Sequence record: DRR378314_1276
Reading direction: 5' to 3' (one strand)
DNA length: 49,719 bases
The notes beneath the pieces are model-generated. The model had not been told where the DNA came from. It saw only the letters and a list, made by a program, of their open reading frames with translations, and ran no database searches. The position numbers and the translations under genes were made by a program. This document shows, one piece after another, positions 5,872 through 47,348 of the stretch. Positions within the stretch are counted from its first letter, which is position 1; each line of letters begins with the position of its first letter.

Positions 5872-6609
5872 ATGCAATGCCCCAAATGCGAGCACCCGCG
5901 AGGCGCCGGGGACACCACCTGCGGCGGCTGCGGGCTGGTCTTTCACAAGTACGAAGCCTACCTGGAGCGCCAGCGCGAGCTGCGGGAAAATCAGACGCCG
6001 CCGGGCCCGGACGGCGCCGAGCGCCTGAAAGCGTTTTTCCAGAGCCTGCTGGTGCCACCGGATACCCTCTACCGTTACCCGGCCCTCTACGCGCTGCTCT
6101 GGGTGGGTCTGGTGGTGTGGGGCTGGAGCTACATCACACAGAGCCTCCACCAGCTCGGTTACCAGCCCGCCTTCCTGCACAACGTGAACCTGCCGTTCCA
6201 CGAAGCCGGGCACGTGATCTTCGGCATTTTCGGCCAGTTCATCGGTTCCCTGGGCGGCACCCTGGGGCAACTGCTGGTGCCGGTGATTTGCGGCATCGCC
6301 CTGCTGCGGCGCCACGACACCTTCGGCGCCAGCGTCTGCCTGTGGTGGTTCGGCGAGAACTTCCTCGACATCGCGCCCTACATGGCCGACGCCCGTGCCG
6401 GCGAGCTGCCGCTACTGGGCGGCAACTACGGCAAGTCCTCCCCCTACGGCTTCCATGATTGGGAATTCATTCTCGGCGAGACCGGGCTGCTGGCCTGGGA
6501 CAAGACGCTGGCGGCGCTGACGCTGAACAGCGGCCGGGCGATCATGGTGCTGGCCATGGTGTGGGGCGCCTGGCTGCTATGGCGGGGCTGGCGCCGACAG
6601 CGCGGCTGA
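5872..6609 (+). CDS. Membrane protein with N-terminal zinc ribbon and M50-like HExxH motif
   Basis: MQCPKC..CGGCG zinc ribbon, several hydrophobic helices, LPFHEAGHVIF and HDW. Confidence 0.75.
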   Translation: MQCPKCEHPRGAGDTTCGGCGLVFHKYEAYLERQRELRENQTPPGPDGAERLKAFFQSLLVPPDTLYRYPALYALLWVGLVVWGWSYITQSLHQLGYQPAFLHNVNLPFHEAGHVIFGIFGQFIGSLGGTLGQLLVPVICGIALLRRHDTFGASVCLWWFGENFLDIAPYMADARAGELPLLGGNYGKSSPYGFHDWEFILGETGLLAWDKTLAALTLNSGRAIMVLAMVWGAWLLWRGWRRQRG

Positions 6610-26094: not shown

Positions 26095-27909
26095 ATGATC
26101 GACGTGGACTTTACCCAACTACCGTTTTCATTGCTGGACGAGGAACACCGCCACCGTCTCGAGAACGCCATGGAAATGGCGTACTTCGAAGCCGGTACGG
26201 TGATTATCGAAGCGCGCCATCCGGCGCAGTTTGTTTATCTGGTTCACAAAGGCGCGGTTCTGGAACTGGACCCGACCCTTCCCGCGGAGGCGGGACGGCT
26301 TGGTGTCTACAGTGCCGGTGATCTGTTCGGCGCGCTCAGCGTGCTTAACGGTCGCAGCCGTTACCGGTTTATTACCGAAGAAGAAACTCTGTGTTATCTG
26401 ATACCGGCCGACCTGTTCCAGTCGTTGTGCCAGGATCAGAAAGAATTCGACGATTACTTCCGCCAGCGCCTCGCCAGCAAGAACCAGCTTCTTGCCGAGC
26501 GGCGCGAGGGCGGGGTGACCATGGCGGGCTTTATGCTCGCCAAGGTGCATCAATGCATGCGCCAGCCTTTGATACTCGACAGCGGCGGCACCATCGCCCA
26601 GGCGGTCGCCGCGCTTAACCAGCACAACGCCGACAGCCTGCTGATGGAGCGCGACGGCCATGTCGGTGTGATCACCAAAACCGACCTGCTGCGCGGCCTG
26701 GTCAACGACGGCCTGACCCCGGACTCTCGTGCTCTGGCGCTGGCCAGTTTCGAGCTGGTGACGGTGCCGCCGGATCAGTTTCTGTTCGCCGCCCTGGTCA
26801 GCATGACCCGCCACGAGGTGCAGCGGGTGGTGGTCATGGACGGCCGCCGTCCGGTGGGCGTGGTGGAGCTCACCGATGTGCTCAGCTTCTTCTCCAGTCG
26901 CTCCTACGTGGTGGGGCTGGAAGTGGAGAAGGCGGACAACCTGGAGGCGCTGGCGATGGCCAGCGCCCGTCTGCCGGAACTGATCCAGGCGCTGATGGCG
27001 CAGGGCGTCAAGATGCGCTTCGCCATGGATCTGCTGGCGGCGCTGAACGGACGCATCATCAGCAAGGCGTTCCAGTTCGTGGTGCCGGAGAGCCATCAGG
27101 AGCACGGTTGCCTGCTGGTGCTGGGCAGCGAAGGGCGCGGCGAGCAGATCCTCAAGACCGATCAGGACAACGCCTTGATCGTCGACGACCCGGAGAACTG
27201 GCCCGAGCGCGACGCGCACATGCAGCGCTTCACCGAAACCCTGCTGCGGCTCGGTTACCCCCGTTGTCCGGGCAACATCATGGTGTCCAACCCGGAGTGG
27301 GTGGGCAGCGCCACCGACTGGAAGGCACGCATCGGCCGCTGGGCCAAGCAGGGCGACGACGCCTCGATGATGAACCTGGCGATTCTGCTCGACGCGCACC
27401 CGGCGGCGGGGCGCACCGAGCTGGTCGATGAGCTGCGGCGGGACCTGTTCCGGGTATGCAGCAACAACGATCTGATTCTGTCGCGCTTTGCCCGGCCGCT
27501 GTTGAAGTTCTCCACCCCGCTGAACTGGTTCGGCGCCCTGAAGAAGCCCCAGCAGGGCATCGATATCAAAAAGGGCGGCCTGTTCCCGGTGGTGCACGGG
27601 GTGCGCGCCATGTCCCTGCAGCACCGCGTCGGTGAGACCGGTACCTTCGGCCGGCTCGACAGGCTGGTGGAGGCGGGGCATATGGAGACCGGCTTCGCCG
27701 AGGAGCTGGGCGAGTCCATGGCGCTGTTCGCGGAGCTGCGGCTCAAGCAGCAGCTGGCCCGTCTGGAGGGCAACGACGAAGAGGGCCGCAACAACCAACT
27801 GCTGATACAGGCGCTGTCGCCGTTGGAAAGAGACCTGCTCAGGGAGTCCCTGCAGGTGGTCAATGAGTTCAAGAAGCGCCTGACCCGGCGTTTTCATCTG
27901 GAGTACTAA
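26095..27909 (+). CDS. cNMP-binding / CBS / DUF294 nucleotidyltransferase protein
   Basis: N-terminal cNMP fold (VYLVHKGAV, GDLFG), CBS pair, GSEGRGEQILKTDQDNAL nucleotidyltransferase motif, GYPRCPGNIMVSNPEW and IDIKKGG. Confidence 0.93.
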   Translation: MIDVDFTQLPFSLLDEEHRHRLENAMEMAYFEAGTVIIEARHPAQFVYLVHKGAVLELDPTLPAEAGRLGVYSAGDLFGALSVLNGRSRYRFITEEETLCYLIPADLFQSLCQDQKEFDDYFRQRLASKNQLLAERREGGVTMAGFMLAKVHQCMRQPLILDSGGTIAQAVAALNQHNADSLLMERDGHVGVITKTDLLRGLVNDGLTPDSRALALASFELVTVPPDQFLFAALVSMTRHEVQRVVVMDGRRPVGVVELTDVLSFFSSRSYVVGLEVEKADNLEALAMASARLPELIQALMAQGVKMRFAMDLLAALNGRIISKAFQFVVPESHQEHGCLLVLGSEGRGEQILKTDQDNALIVDDPENWPERDAHMQRFTETLLRLGYPRCPGNIMVSNPEWVGSATDWKARIGRWAKQGDDASMMNLAILLDAHPAAGRTELVDELRRDLFRVCSNNDLILSRFARPLLKFSTPLNWFGALKKPQQGIDIKKGGLFPVVHGVRAMSLQHRVGETGTFGRLDRLVEAGHMETGFAEELGESMALFAELRLKQQLARLEGNDEEGRNNQLLIQALSPLERDLLRESLQVVNEFKKRLTRRFHLEY

Positions 27910-40645: not shown

Positions 40646-40746
40646 CTGCGCCCCTGAGAGGTCGGGCGGCATCGCCTGGAGAATTGTCCCAGCCTTCACC
40701 GGCCAGCGGTCATGCTCCGTCCCTTGCCGTCCCAGCGGAGATTTCC

Positions 40747-41709
40747 ATGAAGCGCGATAGCAGTTCGGAAACCACCAAGTCGATGCCCGATGTGGCGACG
40801 AACTCCATGGTGGAACACATTCACAGCACCCTGGACTGGGTGGGCATGAGCGAGATCCATCTGCCGGCCCGCATCAGCGACACCCTGGCCGGCGAACGCC
40901 CGGTGAGCACGTCCATCCAGGCCTATGTGAACCTTTCCAACCCGGACGCCAAGGGCATTCACATGTCCCGGCTTTACCTGATGCTGGAGGAAACCTTCGG
41001 CGATCATTCGGTAAGCGCCTATTCGATCCGCAAGCTGTTGCAGAATTTCCTCGACTCCCACGAGGGCCTCAGCGACCGGGGCTTCGTGCAGTTCGATTTC
41101 GAGTACTCGATGCGCCGGCCGGCGCTGAAAAGCAGCTACTCCGGCTGGAAGAGCTACCCGGTGACCATCAAGGCGACCCTGGCCCCGGACGGCATGCGCA
41201 TGGAGCTGGCGGTGGAAGTGCCCTATTCCTCCACCTGCCCGTGCTCCGCGGCGCTGGCCCGGCAGCTGATTCAGGAGCAGTTCCGCAAGGACTTCGAAGG
41301 CGAAGGCTCCGTGGACATGGAGAAGGTGTTCGAGTGGCTGGGCACCGAGGAAGGCATCATGGCGACGCCGCACAGCCAGCGCTCCGTGGCCCAGGTGCGG
41401 GTATTGCTGGATACCGACTGCGACGAGGCCTTCCCGATCACCGCTCTGATCGATTCCATCGAGGGCGCGCTGAAAACGCCGGTGCAGACCGCCGTGAAGC
41501 GGGTCGACGAGCAGGAATTCGCCAAGCTCAACGGCCAGAACCTGATGTTCTGCGAGGATTCCGCGCGGCGCTTGAAGCGGGCGCTGGACGGCCAGCCCTG
41601 CTACCAGGACTTCTGGCTGCGGGTGAATCACCTGGAGAGCCTGCACGCCCACAACGCGGTGGCCATCGCCACCAAGGAAGTGGAGGGCGGCTACCTGCCG
41701 ATTCCCTGA
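40747..41709 (+). CDS. folE2: GTP cyclohydrolase I type IB
   Basis: [51 protein letters not shown] and ESLHAHNA. The start is approximate. Confidence 0.96.
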
Positions 41710-41804: not shown

Positions 41805-42335
41805 TCAGAAGCGGCCGTTGAGCCCCAGGGACAGGTTGGTGACTTCGTCGCCGCCACTGTCCACGGCGCGCATGTATTCCACGCTCACGAACACCACGTC
41901 GGTCAGGCTCACGTCGGCGCCCAGGCCGATGGAGAGGCCGGAGTAGTTCTCGCCGGTGGAGCCGCCGCCGGGGAAGTTCTCGGTGGTTTCCATGCGGGTC
42001 AGGCCGATCAGGCCGTAGGGGCGCACCGGCAGGGTGTTGGGGAACTGGCCACGGAAATAGGCGCCGTAGTAGCGGTCGATTTCCACATCGGTGCCACGGC
42101 CCAGGTCGTCCTCATCAATACCCAGGCCCAGGCGCAGCTCGCCGCCCAGGGTTTCATTGCGGTTGATCCAGGTACCGAACTTGAACTGCAGCGCGGTGGG
42201 ATCGGCGCTGCCGCCGTCGTCCGGTTCGATTTCGCTGCTGACAACGTCGATACCCGCGAAGCCGGAGGCGCCGGCGGCAATGGGCAGGAGGGTCAGGGGC
42301 AGCGCAAGGCTCGCGGCTAACAGGAAAGGCTTCAT
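41805..42335 (-). CDS. Small outer-membrane beta-barrel protein (OmpA-like TM domain)
   Basis: Signal peptide, alternating beta strands (GGELRLGLG, YGAYFRG, PYGLIG, VSVEYM) and a C-terminal Phe. Confidence 0.88.
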   Translation of the reverse strand: MKPFLLAASLALPLTLLPIAAGASGFAGIDVVSSEIEPDDGGSADPTALQFKFGTWINRNETLGGELRLGLGIDEDDLGRGTDVEIDRYYGAYFRGQFPNTLPVRPYGLIGLTRMETTENFPGGGSTGENYSGLSIGLGADVSLTDVVFVSVEYMRAVDSGGDEVTNLSLGLNGRF

Positions 42336-42455
42336 GGGTACTCCGATCATTACTGCGGATGGTTATTAAGGATGCTGTCCGTGAACGCATTGTAGTGAAA
42401 AGAAGCGCGCAAGGCGACGCGCAAGGCCCCGGCCGGACGGCCGGGGCGGAGGGCG

Positions 42456-43815: not shown

Positions 43816-45894
43816 TCAAAAGGTCAGGCGCACGCCGGCGGTCAGGTTACGACCGGGTTCCGGTACCGTGCGCGCCAGAAACGACGCGTGGTTCCACACT
43901 TCCTCGCCGAGCAGATTGCTGGCGCGCAGGAAGGCGCTGTACTGGGGGCTGCCGGTGAAGGTGTAGCTCACCGTGGCATTGAGCATGTCGTGGCCCGGCG
44001 TGCGGGTTTCGAAGCCGGCGATGCGGTCCTGGGCGAACACCCGGTAGAACTCCAGCTCCGCGTCGAAGGCGCGCCAGTAGGTGTTCAGGCGCGCGCCCAG
44101 CCGCTGTGCCGGGATGCGCGGCAGCTCGTCGCCGTTGTCCTCGAATTGCGCGTACACCGTGTCGCCGAAGGCGGTGGTGGAGAAGCGGTCGGTCCACTGG
44201 TAGGTGGCTTCCGCTTCCGCGCCGGTGAACTCCACGTCTTCCTGGCTGTATTTGATCAGGCGGAATTCCTCGATCTGATCCAGGGTGCGGGCGTAGATGT
44301 AGTCCTGAACCCGGTTGTGGAACACGCCGAGGTCGAAGGTCAGATCGCCCTGCACCTTGCGCAGATTTAGGCCCACGTTGTGGGACGTCTCCGTTTCCAG
44401 GTCGGCGTCGTTGGCGGCGCCGCCGCAGGTGAAGGTGTCGGAAAGCAGCCCGCACTCATAGGTGTTGGTGGCCAGATGCACGCCGCGCGCGTAGACCTCC
44501 TGGGTCTGGGGCAAACGCTGGGAGCGCGCCACCGACAGCGACACGTTGTAATCCGGGCGGAACGCCCAGGTCAGCGCGCTGGAGATCGAGGTGGCGGAAT
44601 CGCTCACCGAAGGCAGCGGGCGCTGAGCGTCATCGGGGTCCAGGTCCTGGTGCTCGTAGCGGGCCCCGGCCTCCAGCTGCCACTGGTCGTTGAAGCGGTA
44701 GCGCTCCACCGCGAACAGGGCCGCCACCCGGGTATCGGTTTTCGGCAACAGCCCCTCTTCGCCGGTGGTCTCGATCTGGCCGTCGGTGAACTGGGTGCCC
44801 ACCGTGCCGCGCCAGCCGAGGATGGGCGCGTGCTCCGCCTCCACGCGGGTGTCCACGCCCCGGTGGCGGAAGCTGGTGCCGATTTCGCCTTCCTCGATCT
44901 CGTGGTGACGGTAATCCGTATGGCTGGCGCGCAGGCGCACCGCTTCCACGCCGTCGAACGGCCGGCGGTATTCACCGCGCAGGTCCACGCGGCGGCTGTC
45001 CAGGTCCACGAACGGCGCTTCCTCTTCGCCGTGCTCGTGCTCATGGCCTTCTTCCGCGCAATCCAGGCTGGCGCCGTTGCTGGTGCAGCCCTCGAACTCG
45101 TGGCTGTGGCCGGGCAGGCCGTAGAGGTCGCCGCGGTAGGAGTAGGCGACGCCCAGATAGCCCCGGCCACCGATCCATGAGAGCCCGACGCTGGCGTTGT
45201 TGCTTTCCGCCCAGGTGCCGTCGATCTCCTGTTCGGTGAAGCCGTTCACCTCGTAGTTGTCGGCGTCGCGGCGGGCGCCTTCCACATGGATGGCGATATT
45301 ATCGCCGGCGCGGGCGGTCAGCCCCACGGCGCCGGCCTGTTCGTCGGCCACGGTGTTGCCGCGCGCCGAGACGAAGCCTTCCACCGGGCGGTCCGGCATG
45401 CGCGTGGGGATTTTGTTGTCGAGCACGTTGACCACGCCGCCGATGGCGCCGCCGCCATACAGCAGGGTGGACGGGCCGCGCAGCACTTCCACCTTGCGCG
45501 ACAGCATGGGCTCCACGGTGGTGGCGTGGTCCGGCGAGATGGTCGACATGTCGAACAGTTGCGCGCCGTCGGACAGCACGCTGACACGCGGCGCGGTCTG
45601 GCCGCGGATCACCGGCCGGCCGGAGCCGCCGCCGTAGGTGTCGGCGTGCACGCCGGGCAGGCCGTCCAGGGTATCGCCCAGGGTGGCTTCGCTTTGCTGG
45701 AACAGCAGCTGGTCTTCAAGCAGGTCGAACGAGGCCGGCGTCAGATTGGCGTCGCTGCCCAGCGGCAAAGCGGACACTTCCACGGCGTCCAGCCGGCCTT
45801 CGGTGTCGGTGGACGCGGGCTCGGCGGCGGGCGCCACGGACCAGACCATGGCGGCCACGGTGGCGGCGGCCATGGGGGGAGTAAAGCGTTTCAT
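43816..45894 (-). CDS. TonB-dependent receptor, ZnuD-like (zinc uptake)
   Basis: RPVIRGQ, SPDH, EVLRGPSTLLYGGGAIGGVVN plug, YGLPGHSHEFEGC..CAEEGHEHEH loop, DYRHHEIE, GVHLAT and the C-terminal PGRN..F. Confidence 0.92.
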   Translation of the reverse strand: MKRFTPPMAAATVAAMVWSVAPAAEPASTDTEGRLDAVEVSALPLGSDANLTPASFDLLEDQLLFQQSEATLGDTLDGLPGVHADTYGGGSGRPVIRGQTAPRVSVLSDGAQLFDMSTISPDHATTVEPMLSRKVEVLRGPSTLLYGGGAIGGVVNVLDNKIPTRMPDRPVEGFVSARGNTVADEQAGAVGLTARAGDNIAIHVEGARRDADNYEVNGFTEQEIDGTWAESNNASVGLSWIGGRGYLGVAYSYRGDLYGLPGHSHEFEGCTSNGASLDCAEEGHEHEHGEEEAPFVDLDSRRVDLRGEYRRPFDGVEAVRLRASHTDYRHHEIEEGEIGTSFRHRGVDTRVEAEHAPILGWRGTVGTQFTDGQIETTGEEGLLPKTDTRVAALFAVERYRFNDQWQLEAGARYEHQDLDPDDAQRPLPSVSDSATSISSALTWAFRPDYNVSLSVARSQRLPQTQEVYARGVHLATNTYECGLLSDTFTCGGAANDADLETETSHNVGLNLRKVQGDLTFDLGVFHNRVQDYIYARTLDQIEEFRLIKYSQEDVEFTGAEAEATYQWTDRFSTTAFGDTVYAQFEDNGDELPRIPAQRLGARLNTYWRAFDAELEFYRVFAQDRIAGFETRTPGHDMLNATVSYTFTGSPQYSAFLRASNLLGEEVWNHASFLARTVPEPGRNLTAGVRLTF

Positions 45895-45898
45895 GTTG

Positions 45899-45982
45899 TC
45901 TCCTGAATACAACCACGGGCCGTCCTGGCGCAGCGCCAGGGCCGGTCCCGATAAGGGAAGTCAGTGCTTGGAATTCAGGAGA
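45899..45982 (-). promoter_or_regulatory. Anti-SD/SD translational attenuator hairpin of the TonB receptor
   Basis: Perfect 10-bp inverted repeat (45899-45908 / 45973-45982). In the mRNA, UCUCCUGAAU (uORF end and stop) pairs with AUUCAGGAGA (receptor SD). Inner hairpin CCUGGCG/CGCCAGG. Confidence 0.75.
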
Positions 45983-46274
45983 AGCGGGGTGGCGCGCGCG
46001 CCGGATGGTTGCGGGTCGGGGTGACCGCCCGCGGGCGACGGACGTCGGCCGCGGGCGTGGTGGTGTCGGGAAGCACCGGTGGCGGCGTGAACAGGGTGGG
46101 CACGCCCACCAGGCCGTGGCCTTGCACGCACAGGTCGCAGTCGTGGGCGACGATCGCGGACTGGCCGTCGTGGCCGTCGAAGATGTGCGCCGGGGCGTGC
46201 CAGGCGAGCAGCGTCTGCGCGACCAGCAGCAGGGCGACGAACAGTAACCGACCCTGGGGACGCGGCTCACTCAT
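45975..46274 (-). CDS. DUF2946/CruR/CutF-like leader protein with TM/signal, His/CxxC and C-terminal RAPP arrest motif
   Basis: [34 protein letters not shown], Pro-rich linker, ARAPPRFS-stop. Ends 80 nt upstream of the receptor. Confidence 0.82.
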
Positions 46275-46503
46275 GGGCGTCCCCGCAACGGTGGCCGGGC
46301 ACCGGGTCGAAGCCGCCGGGGTGCCAGGGGTGACACTTGCACAGCCGCTTCACCGCCAGACCGGAACCGCGCAAGCTGCCGTGGGCTTCCACCGCCTGAC
46401 GCGCGTACTCCGAACAGGTCGGATAGAACCGGCACTGATTCCCCAGCCAGGGGCTCAGTACGGTCTGGTACACACGCAGGGCGGCCAGCAGAAGGCGTTT
46501 CAC
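46267..46503 (-). CDS. yidD: Membrane protein insertion efficiency factor YidD (paralogous or relocated copy)
   Basis: [29 protein letters not shown] and [20 protein letters not shown] start. Confidence 0.92.
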
Positions 46504-46673
46504 GTTGGCATCCGGTCATAACAGGGGTTGATTCGACTGGGCATCATAGCGGTTATCGGGCCGATGTCGCCACCGCGATGTGCAAAAGGGGCCAATCCCA
46601 CACCGCGCGCTTGTGCGCGGGCGGCCGGGTCCCATACTGAGCGGCCTGTCTCTCACCGAACCGAGGAATCGCC

Positions 46674-47348
46674 GTGTTGAACCCGCTTGTGTCCCTGTGT
46701 ACGGGGCTGCTTCTCCTGGCCGTCAGCGTCTCCGCCGCCGCTCAATCCTGGCAACCCAACCGGGAGGCCGACGCCCGCGACCAGGTCTCCACCTGGACCC
46801 GGGATGTGCCGGACAGCCCGGTTAAGGCGTTTCGTGGCGTGGTGGAGGTGCCGCACGGGCCGGTGCCGGTGCTGGCGGCGATCACCGCCGTGGACACCTT
46901 TCCGGAGTGGATCTTCCAGGTCCAGGCCAGCGAGGCGGTGCCGGACACCGGCGGCGAGCGCACCTATATGCGCTTCAACGGCATCTGGCCGGTGTCCGAC
47001 CGCGACGTGGTGCTCGACAACAGCGTCAGCCAGGCGCCGGAAAGCGGTGCCGTGACCCTGCACAGCGTCAACGCCGAGGGCGCGCGGCCGCCCAGCGACG
47101 GCTATGTGCGCATCCCGGCGCTGAATAATCGGTTCGTGGTGACGCCGCTGGCGGACGGCTGGACGCGGGTGGAATTCCGCACCTTCGTCGACCCGGGCGG
47201 CAAGGTGCCGGTGTGGCTGGCCAATCTGGTCGCCACCAAGGCGCCGCTGGTGACGCTGGAAGGGCTGCAGGCGCAGCTGGAGAAGCCGCGCTTCAAGAAC
47301 GCCGGCAAGGACGACCTGCCGGCGGTCTTCGACGGGGTTCGTTTCTAG
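46674..47348 (+). CDS. Secreted START/SRPBCC lipid-binding domain protein
   Basis: Signal peptide, WPVSDRDVV and VDPGGKVPVWLAN motifs. Confidence 0.85.
   Translation: MLNPLVSLCTGLLLLAVSVSAAAQSWQPNREADARDQVSTWTRDVPDSPVKAFRGVVEVPHGPVPVLAAITAVDTFPEWIFQVQASEAVPDTGGERTYMRFNGIWPVSDRDVVLDNSVSQAPESGAVTLHSVNAEGARPPSDGYVRIPALNNRFVVTPLADGWTRVEFRTFVDPGGKVPVWLANLVATKAPLVTLEGLQAQLEKPRFKNAGKDDLPAVFDGVRF

Follow-up and report, generated by a model that had tools for sequence, protein, structure and literature searches.

A probable zinc-linked arrest-peptide leader whose last codons pair with the Shine-Dalgarno sequence of a ZnuD-like receptor gene

To our knowledge, bacterial zinc uptake is explained almost entirely by the repressor Zur, and we know of no zinc riboswitch. 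ZnuD, ZnuABC, ZigA and FolE2 are the typical members of Zur-repressed zinc-uptake regulons. How, then, would a zinc-uptake operon be controlled at which no Zur box is found? This question is raised by the 49,719-nt stretch of DNA from record DRR378314_1276, which was analysed as a whole and is called the window below. Its minus strand carries an operon with the same kind of target genes as a Zur regulon, among them a gene for a ZnuD-like TonB-dependent receptor, but control would here be post-transcriptional and would act through a nascent peptide. The candidate is a 99-aa open reading frame (ORF) directly upstream of the receptor gene, which ends in the presumed arrest motif RAPP and whose last codons and stop are complementary to the receptor's Shine-Dalgarno (SD) sequence. 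We consider it likely that this ORF is a cis-acting leader of the CruR/CutF class that controls translation of the receptor, and it is probably a zinc-linked variant of a copper-sensing peptide switch.

The arrest, the metal and the polarity of the switch are what we infer from this arrangement, as follows, in a mechanism that keeps to the outline of the initial annotation and that we prefer to the alternatives. Transcription would start at the yidD promoter, and the leader would be translated just behind yidD. In free mRNA, the last codons of the leader and its stop would pair with the SD sequence of the receptor gene and block initiation. A ribosome arrested with Pro95 and Pro96 in its P and A sites would hold the anti-SD nucleotides +11 to about +15 in its mRNA channel, which would free the AGGAG core and allow the receptor to be translated; the downstream AztD-like gene would probably follow through coupling or mRNA protection. 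The length of the arrest would be set by binding of a metal, most probably zinc, to H26, H30 and C46 of the emerged nascent chain. Metal binding would end the arrest, as it does in CruR; the uptake genes would then be on when the metal is scarce and off when there is enough of it.

The ORF has the anatomy that the initial annotation, a reading of the bare sequence, had described: a hydrophobic N-terminus, a HDCDLC segment, a Pro-rich linker and the C-terminus ARAPP-RFS-stop (Table 1). The most hydrophobic 15 residues (10-24) have a Kyte-Doolittle mean of 2.6 and are preceded by an Arg. The only PPP, at residues 64-66, lies 30 residues upstream of RAPP. CxxC and RAPP are separated by 43 intervening residues, and three residues lie between RAPP and the stop. 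RAPP and RGPP are reported to be the most arrest-prone motifs of this type, and upstream ORFs that carry them to be enriched in front of TonB-dependent receptors (PMC12992588). The predicted arrest register, which places P95 (45992-45990) and P96 in the P and A sites respectively, is borrowed from toeprinting of CruR, which is described as arresting in vitro with its two Pro codons in these sites (PMC12992588). Residues 5-99 share 93% identity with A. venustensis ISO4, and a single-protein search for related loci returned only six close Alcanivorax/Alloalcanivorax loci. These matches assign the source organism to Alcanivorax/Alloalcanivorax, and thereby to marine bacteria that degrade hydrocarbons and are not pathogenic.

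The 10-nt complementarity and the inner hairpin reported for the leader-receptor junction were both recovered by an inverted-repeat search. The two arms are 100% complementary and lie 64 nt apart. Counted from the first nucleotide of the P95 codon, the anti-SD arm occupies +11 to +20 and the partners of AGGAG +12 to +16. Folding of 46030-45880 yields exactly this helix around the inner hairpin, both in the minimum free energy (MFE) structure and in the centroid structure (-57.2 kcal/mol), and the ensemble gives a probability of 1.00 for pairing between the SD core and the end of the leader. When the SD 10-mer was held fixed and the 122 nt upstream of it were shuffled with their composition preserved, a perfect 10-mer complement arose in 9 of 200,000 shuffles. 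RNAalifold on 11 genus-level sequences found compensatory changes in 5 of 20 consensus pairs, all of them in the inner hairpin and two short stems. A search of 45700-46700 against Rfam matched no family at E values up to 1.

The pairing between ORF end and SD region is locus-specific. For each locus the best duplex was computed between the ORF tail (positions -15 to +9 relative to the stop) and the 20 nt that precede the following gene, and native combinations were compared with combinations across loci. The sample comprised 16 non-redundant Alcanivoracaceae loci, not counting L025, which was dropped as near-identical to the window, and 11 gammaproteobacterial loci of other families, drawn from the 13 of 301 genomes that were matched by a profile of 16 aligned leader homologues (alignment A1). 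Native pairing amounted to -15.38 kcal/mol against -11.01 kcal/mol across loci in the Alcanivoracaceae (-13.58 against -9.75 kcal/mol with Pro codons excluded; 0/20,000 permutations reached the native value in either case), to -14.35 against -11.06 kcal/mol in the other families (7/20,000; -11.03 against -9.37 kcal/mol and 284/20,000 with Pro codons excluded), and to -15.09 against -10.89 kcal/mol in all 27 loci (0/20,000); since the loci are mutually related, these permutation counts overstate independence and are not probabilities. The native advantage was absent from control segments taken 27-135 nt further upstream in the ORF. The arms themselves differ between lineages, as in the pairs UCUCCUGAAU/AUUCAGGAGA, CACCUCUG/CAGAGGUG, GUCCUGAA/UUCAGGAC, CCUGAAUA/UAUUCAGG, CCUGAAAGC/GCUUUCAGG, CUGCCUGC/GCAGGCAG and CGCUCCA/UGGAGCG. 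In the folding ensembles, the SD core pairs with the leader tail with P>0.5 in 22 of the 27 loci, across spacers of 45-243 nt.

Positions in the helix were numbered starting at the first Pro codon's first nucleotide; this codon would occupy the P site of an arrested ribosome. The mRNA channel of the ribosome extends to about +15/+16 from the P site. In 25 of the 27 loci, the nucleotides that pair with the SD core in the MFE structure fall between -1 and +17 (two of the 25 have one stray partner farther away), so that an arrested ribosome would hold exactly the nucleotides that mask the SD core, as the initial annotation had envisaged for a ribosome stalled at RAPP. The stop codon, in contrast, varies in position from +10 to +25. 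Fixed partners and a variable stop suggest that the helix is tied to the arrest site rather than to termination, and the P-site-anchored geometry would give a reason for the fixed arrangement of RAPP plus three codons. At the G149 locus, where the stop lies at +37, the anti-SD UUUUCUCC is found at about +11 to +18 when the sequence is read by eye. On these comparative grounds, the tail-SD helix is selected rather than accidental. UGA is the stop codon in 24 of the 27 leader ORFs (17/17 in Alcanivoracaceae, L025 counted) and is also part of the helix, where it pairs with UCA; UGA is the common stop in GC-rich genomes.

Leaders of this kind form a narrow family. A homologue is present in 21 of 61 related genomes, all of one family, and the A1 profile retrieved 71 clusters among 5.8 billion proteins, whose displayed organisms are Alcanivorax, Alloalcanivorax or Alcanivoracaceae except for two generic bins (Pseudomonadales, Pseudomonadota). 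Nearly all named clusters are labelled 'hypothetical protein'; one UniRef entry is named DUF2946, and two of the 71 clusters carry a precomputed PF11162 match. R[AG]PP followed by two or three terminal residues ends 65 of the 71 (exactly three residues in 61; 34 RGPP, 31 RAPP), while the remaining six comprise four with a truncated or unrelated end, one with RDPP and one with RGPP and a 12-residue tail. HxxxH occurs in 70 clusters and in the 71st lies past the 60 residues scanned. In 56 of 64 clusters the conserved Cys and the Arg lie 46-47 residues apart. Within A1, the invariant columns are M1, A24, H26, H30, C46, R93, P95 and P96, and W25, P28, G54 and A92 are near-invariant. A fixed scaffold with almost nothing else conserved suggests a regulatory nascent peptide rather than a folded protein. 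Variant leader ends upstream of ZnuD-like receptors were seen as KAPP-AA-stop (L084, G339:C6) and as RAPP followed by 10 residues (L085, G149:C1).

The genes behind the leaders bear out the zinc identity that had been proposed for the targets. The receptor matches the ZnuD model NF038289 with E 1.5e-195 and 651.8 bits, which is below the model cut-off of 950, and scores 144.3 bits with the next best NCBIfam model and 69.5 bits with the TonB-copper model; judged by these scores it is ZnuD-like rather than a curated ZnuD. In other Alcanivoracaceae genera the leader is followed by a His-rich porin-like protein and then by ZnuA (PF01297) and an ABC-3 permease. One island (L031, G027:C8) has two leader ORFs (2515-2808 and 5965-6291), each with its own tail-SD pairing. 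The first lies behind yidD and precedes the porin-like gene, ZnuA and ABC-3; the second, which ends in RGPP-ASA-stop, lies about 3.2 kb downstream and precedes a ZnuD-like receptor (648.4 bits). In other families the leader precedes ZrgA-like (L068) and ZnuD-like genes (L071, L076) or the same His-rich porin-like protein (L070), and six further leaders precede porin-like barrels of unassigned specificity, with L073 scanned by Pfam only; no copper family was matched among the genes after these other-family leaders. By homology, everything nameable around the leaders points to zinc.

Many leaders are followed by a protein of about 430 aa (L039 2892-4190, L038 2935-4227, L070 75-1397, L031 2933-4234). 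It has a signal peptide, the motif FNPAxSVIxDG..YY, a His-rich loop and the ending LGAHGAH(T/S/Q)F. Three members (L039, L038, L070) gave no Pfam or NCBIfam match at the thresholds used. The family looks like an unnamed outer-membrane channel for zinc.

For Zur boxes, we scanned with what we take to be the general consensus. It is anchored by boxes tabulated for Caulobacter (PMC4176598) and by the site upstream of zigA described below. In the window, TGTTATNNTATAACA with up to three mismatches has no site near the locus; the sole site lies at 26392, and 22 of 100 shuffles did equally well. Among the 16 Alcanivoracaceae loci, a search by regular expression found a Zur-type box in one (L028) and none in the other 15, and the upstream regions of yidD, when read, have -10-like elements and no palindrome. 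In the nearest genome, zigA (681.8 bits, above the cut-off) is preceded by a perfect Zur-type box, TGTTATATTATAACATAAC (L044 at ~1500, G001:C28:21954-21972), so the genus has canonical Zur sites although none was found at this operon. With a housekeeping promoter ahead of conditional uptake genes, post-transcriptional control would have a plain reason.

The initial annotation had gone further and had read the missing Zur box as pointing to a peptide zinc switch. The first part of this argument holds for the locus, but the argument does not generalise, since three related leader loci have Zur-box-like sites. One is L028 (G002:C9), where the 132-nt spacer between leader and ZnuD-like receptor (669.8 bits) contains TGTTATGTTATAAC; Zur and the leader may both act on this receptor gene. 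The same locus also keeps a perfect 8-bp tail-SD pairing, CACCUCUG/CAGAGGUG. The other two have their site upstream of the leader, L076 as a perfect TGTTATCTTATAACA at a distance of about 30 nt and L071 as CGTTACGATATAACA. Nine ZnuD-like loci were found in the 301 genomes of the class, five of them with an upstream ORF that ends in [RK][AG]PP. In this small sample the half-site TATAACAT is present at three of the four ZnuD-like loci that have no leader ORF and at none of the four new ones that have one.

A separate promoter in the 80-nt spacer, which the initial annotation had raised as a point that would speak against the switch, was not found: a scan of 45600-46800 returned as its sole promoter-like site (shuffle mean 0.0) the sigma-70-like candidate upstream of yidD. 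An intrinsic terminator was considered and rejected: the hairpin is not followed by a T-run, and the minus strand yielded no terminator. In two RNA libraries, single contigs span leader, spacer and receptor (X1, 45545-46699; X3, 45400-46313); such contigs carry no levels, strands or true ends, and the libraries may contain DNA.

Several observations weigh against a leader that masks and unmasks the receptor's SD in response to zinc, and they are set out here together with the explanations that they favour. The fold of the whole region has a z-score of only -2.03, and 5 of 200 shuffles fold equally well. The outer stem is invariant in 11/11 genus sequences and is therefore uninformative on covariation. 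Five of the 27 loci fail the stop-anchored pairing test, and in two (L066 and L068) the partners of the SD core lie at +22 to +27. Shuffling the tails without altering their composition leaves a mean pairing probability of 0.33, against 0.77 for native tails, and several loci pair no better than their own shuffled tails; in the window the values are 0.59 and 1.00, and 0/40 shuffles are as good as the native tail. Pyrimidine-rich Pro/Ser codons thus supply part of the signal free. The conservation and covariation of the pairing that had been proposed as a check are present as locus-specific pairing across the 27 loci, but not as changes in the outer stem within the genus, and part of the pairing signal is a matter of composition.

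In its strongest form this objection would make helix and motif chance features of a GC-rich, Pro-rich ORF end, without any regulatory role. The composition baseline is indeed not negligible and the fold z-score is modest. Such an origin nevertheless has to accommodate the rarity of the 10-mer among shuffles, permutations of which 0/20,000 reached the native pairing over all 27 loci, a common geometry in 25 of 27 loci and a motif set kept in 65 of 71 clusters, and we regard it as extremely improbable.

Other points concern what the leader senses. It scores 17.3 bits (E 0.0085) with Pfam DUF2946 (PF11162), below the cut-off of 23.7, over leader residues 31-96 and model positions 49-117 of 117, and a PF11162 search of five out of five related genomes gave nothing above the cut-off. 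The CxxC motif is described as invariant in DUF2946 and as needed for copper control (PMC9426467). The stress that the initial annotation had laid on this motif is not borne out by the family: CxxC is present in 6 of 16 A1 homologues and 29 of 71 clusters and lost in the other 42; what the family retains is HxxxH, a single Cys and R[AG]PP. In homologues from other families CxxC is kept in 11/11. Since most members lack the CruR-type copper-sensing motif, they may sense by a different chemistry or not at all. That the second Cys is often lost while both His and one Cys are retained would fit a shift away from a Cu(I)-type site, although it is suggestive only.

The switch might work as described and yet respond to copper or another metal, with the receptor controlled by, or importing, that metal. 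CruR and CutF, and with them all characterised members, are copper-responsive, the ORF in the window has a CxxC of copper(I) type, and the zinc specificity of the ZnuA family and of ZnuD-like receptors is not strict. CutF-like proteins with His motifs only have moreover been linked to nickel and cobalt genes (PMC9973294). Against this stand the neighbourhood, in which no copper gene lies, the receptor's score with ZnuD as opposed to TonB-copper (651.8 vs 69.5 bits), the AztD-like, ZnuA, ZrgA-like and folE2 genes around homologous leaders, the Zur-type boxes at three related leader loci and the loss of CxxC in most clusters. A metal other than zinc therefore appears unlikely to us.

Sensing might also be absent altogether. 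Coexistence of Zur-type boxes with the leader in L071 and L076 means that the leader need not be the zinc sensor, and any terminating ribosome would briefly open the helix, so that arrest is not strictly required. The ORF could then be a constitutive coupling device, could monitor Sec/YidC/YidD export in the manner of ApdA, ApdP or SecM, or could encode a small metal-binding protein of the periplasm, its end overlapping an SD-masking helix by chance. RAPP arrest peptides are best known as export monitors that are released by translocon pulling (PMC10987492, PMC10951233), and the ORF lies directly behind yidD. With ApdA, ApdP and SecM, arrest peptides of RAPP or RAGP type, it shares a C-terminal motif of RAPP/RGPP type, the form of a small, presumably exported protein and, as presumed here, a Pro-Pro arrest in the P and A sites. 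Those peptides, however, precede sec or yidC genes, whereas here a ZnuD-like receptor gene lies downstream and yidD upstream, and the metal ligands have been conserved. In all loci examined, no sec or yidC gene follows the leader; the genes that do follow it have outer-membrane or periplasmic products, and every nameable one is a zinc-uptake gene. Beyond the signal segment only the two His, the Cys, a Gly and (A)R[AG]PP are conserved, with a fixed spacing from Cys to RAPP, and adjacency to yidD is confined to Alcanivoracaceae. We hold this family of explanations to be very improbable.

The main output, finally, may differ. A C-rich, G-poor tract covers the 3' third of the ORF (Table 1) and fits an alternative route through Rho; the Rho-utilization (rut) region of cruR is reported to be C-rich and G-poor likewise (PMC9426467). 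Contigs from two other studies (X4 and X6) end at 45955/45957, 18-20 nt past the leader stop, without loose ends. The word depth for X4 is 24.2 in the upstream contig vs 5.4, and in X6 45851-45956 are uncovered. These ends give a weak hint of a termination or decay step, seen as a transcript or coverage break; they could reflect a 3' end, a drop in coverage or strain variation in the spacer.

The same leader could accordingly act mainly through Rho-dependent termination and polarity, with the arrested ribosome keeping Rho from loading where the ORF is C-rich, towards its 3' end. In that case the tail-SD helix would be secondary, or would keep the untranslated receptor message naked for Rho. 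This is the mechanism reported for Bordetella CruR (PMC9426467), and the tract and, weakly, the contig ends agree with it. It leaves unexplained why the SD partners covary and why they lie within +17 of the P site, and two RNA-library contigs bridge the junction. As the main output we judge termination by Rho to be improbable, about as much so as a different metal. The Rho route is compatible with the helix mechanism, however, and both may act together, with Rho taking a share of the output.

Translational control of the receptor by a zinc-linked leader can be compared with two characterised systems. CruR (Bp2923) of Bordetella pertussis is encoded by a DUF2946 upstream ORF ahead of the operon of the TonB-dependent transporter BfrG; copper is reported to relieve its RAPP arrest, after which Rho terminates transcription (PMC9426467). 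The gap between CXXC and RAPP in CruR is 45 residues, is conserved within 1-2 residues and tolerates mutants of +/-2 (PMC9426467). The kinship with CruR-type leaders that the initial annotation had proposed is upheld by the architecture of the ORF in the window. It has a presumed N-terminal export signal, CxxC, a spacer of nearly equal length (45 residues in CruR, 43 here), RAPP three residues before the stop, a TonB-dependent receptor gene directly downstream, a long structured spacer and a C-rich 3' region, and the proposed polarity is equal, with the metal releasing the arrest and the uptake genes going off. It differs in that CruR senses copper through an invariant CxxC, whereas the context here is zinc and the second Cys is often lost. 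CruR also heads its operon, whereas this leader stands second, behind yidD, and falls short of the DUF2946 cut-off. CruR, moreover, is reported to act through Rho-dependent termination; the main text of that report uses none of the words hairpin, Shine-Dalgarno and ribosome binding site (PMC9426467).

The other half of the mechanism resembles CutF, encoded in the cutFOG operon of Rhodobacter capsulatus, where a stalled ribosome opens the anti-SD stem-loop of cutO and the stem-loop has been mutated experimentally (PMC9973294; bioRxiv 10.1101/2025.02.05.636593). CutF too is an exported leader that acts only in cis, and its C-terminal stalling melts a stem-loop that shields the SD of the next gene; the leader in the window likewise has a predicted stem-loop with an anti-SD over the downstream SD. 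By the filters used to collect CutF-like proteins (PMC9973294), it has 99 aa (<150), a PP at residues 95-96 within the last 15 residues and a same-strand gene 80 nt away (<1000), and the signal peptide is judged present from the hydrophobic N-terminus alone. CutF, in contrast, uses CxxxC and a Pro-rich/PPP stall that depends on elongation factor P, instead of CxxC and RAPP. In CutF, copper increases stalling and turns on a detoxifying oxidase, so that both polarity and type of target are opposite. The anti-SD of the present leader, furthermore, lies within the last codons and the stop of the ORF itself.

Both halves of the mechanism are thus already in print, namely an RAPP arrest relieved by metal in CruR and an SD-shielding stem-loop in CutF. 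What appears to be unpublished is that the genes around the leaders point consistently to zinc, that the ligand set is altered, that the leader stands behind yidD where no Zur box was found, and that a covarying anti-SD is anchored on the P site across 27 loci. The word zinc is absent from the main text of PMC9426467, PMC9973294 and PMC12992588, whose supplementary neighbour tables, which cover thousands of homologues, may already include ZnuD-type neighbours. In the work on CruR and CutF, DUF2946 leaders are presented as responding to copper, and for some of them nickel and cobalt are considered (PMC9426467, PMC9973294). In full-text literature we found nothing that joins an arrest peptide with zinc uptake or ZnuD with an upstream ORF. 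DUF2946 and zinc meet there in a gene table that has a DUF2946 gene beside czrCBA, and another text calls DUF2946 a copper-homeostasis protein.

We tentatively go one step further, in a proposal that we think has somewhat less than an even chance of being right. The leader would be the first zinc-responsive nascent-peptide sensor, in which a His2-Cys leader reads zinc, possibly that of the periplasm, and gates translation of zinc-uptake genes for outer-membrane and periplasmic proteins. In Alcanivoracaceae it would act free of Zur, since the operon would be driven by the promoter of yidD, and in other Gammaproteobacteria it would add a further layer of control beneath Zur; the P-site-anchored anti-SD would be a general output of the CruR/CutF class, including members so far explained by Rho. 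If so, the leader would be a protein-based post-transcriptional zinc switch. The family would offer a natural series in which the arrest scaffold stays fixed while the ligands pass from CxxC to HxxxH and a single Cys, for the study of how metal binding is coupled to release. It would also supply a simple structural rule, namely that the anti-SD lies no farther than about +17 nt from the P site of the arrested ribosome, by which such switches could be found and tested genome-wide.

Table 1. Features of the leader locus and its surroundings in the window, listed along the minus strand from the promoter candidate, with parts of the leader and of the helix after the gene to which they belong
Feature	Position	Strand	Remarks
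Sigma-70-like promoter candidate (GCGACA, 16 nt, TATGAT)	46543..46570	-	upstream of yidD
yidD, membrane protein insertion efficiency factor, 78 aa	46267..46503	-	Pfam YidD 1.5e-30; TIGR00278 89.1 bits (cut-off 40)
Leader ORF, 99 aa, CruR/CutF-like, DUF2946 fringe, ATG to TGA	45975..46274	-	
Codons for residues 10-25, a hydrophobic stretch near the N-terminus that presumably exports or anchors the peptide	46200..46247	-	conserved in A1
H26-x3-H30 codons	46185..46199	-	both His invariant in 16/16 aligned homologues
C46-D-L-C49 codons (HDCDLC)	46128..46139	-	C46 invariant; C49 not conserved
C-rich, G-poor tract, possible Rho-loading region	45960..46090	-	C 0.43-0.53, G 0.20-0.30, C/G ratio 1.6-2.5
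R93-A94-P95-P96 codons, presumed arrest motif	45987..45998	-	R, P, P invariant in A1
Anti-SD arm UCUCCUGAAU	45973..45982	-	last 2 nt of codon 98, codon 99, stop UGA, 2 further nt
Inner hairpin CCUGGCGC/GCGCCAGG	45924..45940 (arms 45924-45931 / 45933-45940)	-	inside the long-range helix
SD arm AUUCAGGAGA, holds the receptor's Shine-Dalgarno AGGAG	45899..45908	-	arm ends 4 nt before ATG
TonB-dependent receptor, ZnuD-like, 692 aa, ATG at 45894	43816..45894	-	plug and barrel domains
AztD-like periplasmic protein, His-rich termini, 439 aa	42456..43775	-	NF038015 AztD 94.6 bits (cut-off 400)
Small outer-membrane beta-barrel protein	41805..42350	-	PF13505 2.1e-15; position kept in related loci (synteny)
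folE2, GTP cyclohydrolase I type 2, convergent with the operon	40684..41709	+	PF02649 4.5e-73

At the upstream end of the operon, the 3' end of yidD and the start of the leader ORF overlap by 8 nt. In five of five related genomes (G001, G015, G018, G020, G023) yidD is the sole PF01809 match and always lies beside the leader ORF. A second yidD paralogue was considered and rejected, the gene being the only yidD of its genome. The two genes are adjacent in all primary Alcanivoracaceae loci and in none of the other families. In Alcanivoracaceae the housekeeping gene yidD thus heads a zinc-uptake operon instead of accompanying rnpA and yidC. Downstream of the receptor, the AztD-like protein was assigned to no family by a Pfam scan; it has His/Asp/Glu runs at both ends, with EDEHDHDHG near the N-terminus and HDHDGHDDHDEDHDHDH at the C-terminus. 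On the far side of the beta-barrel gene, folE2 adjoins the island in those related loci that are long enough to show it (synteny).

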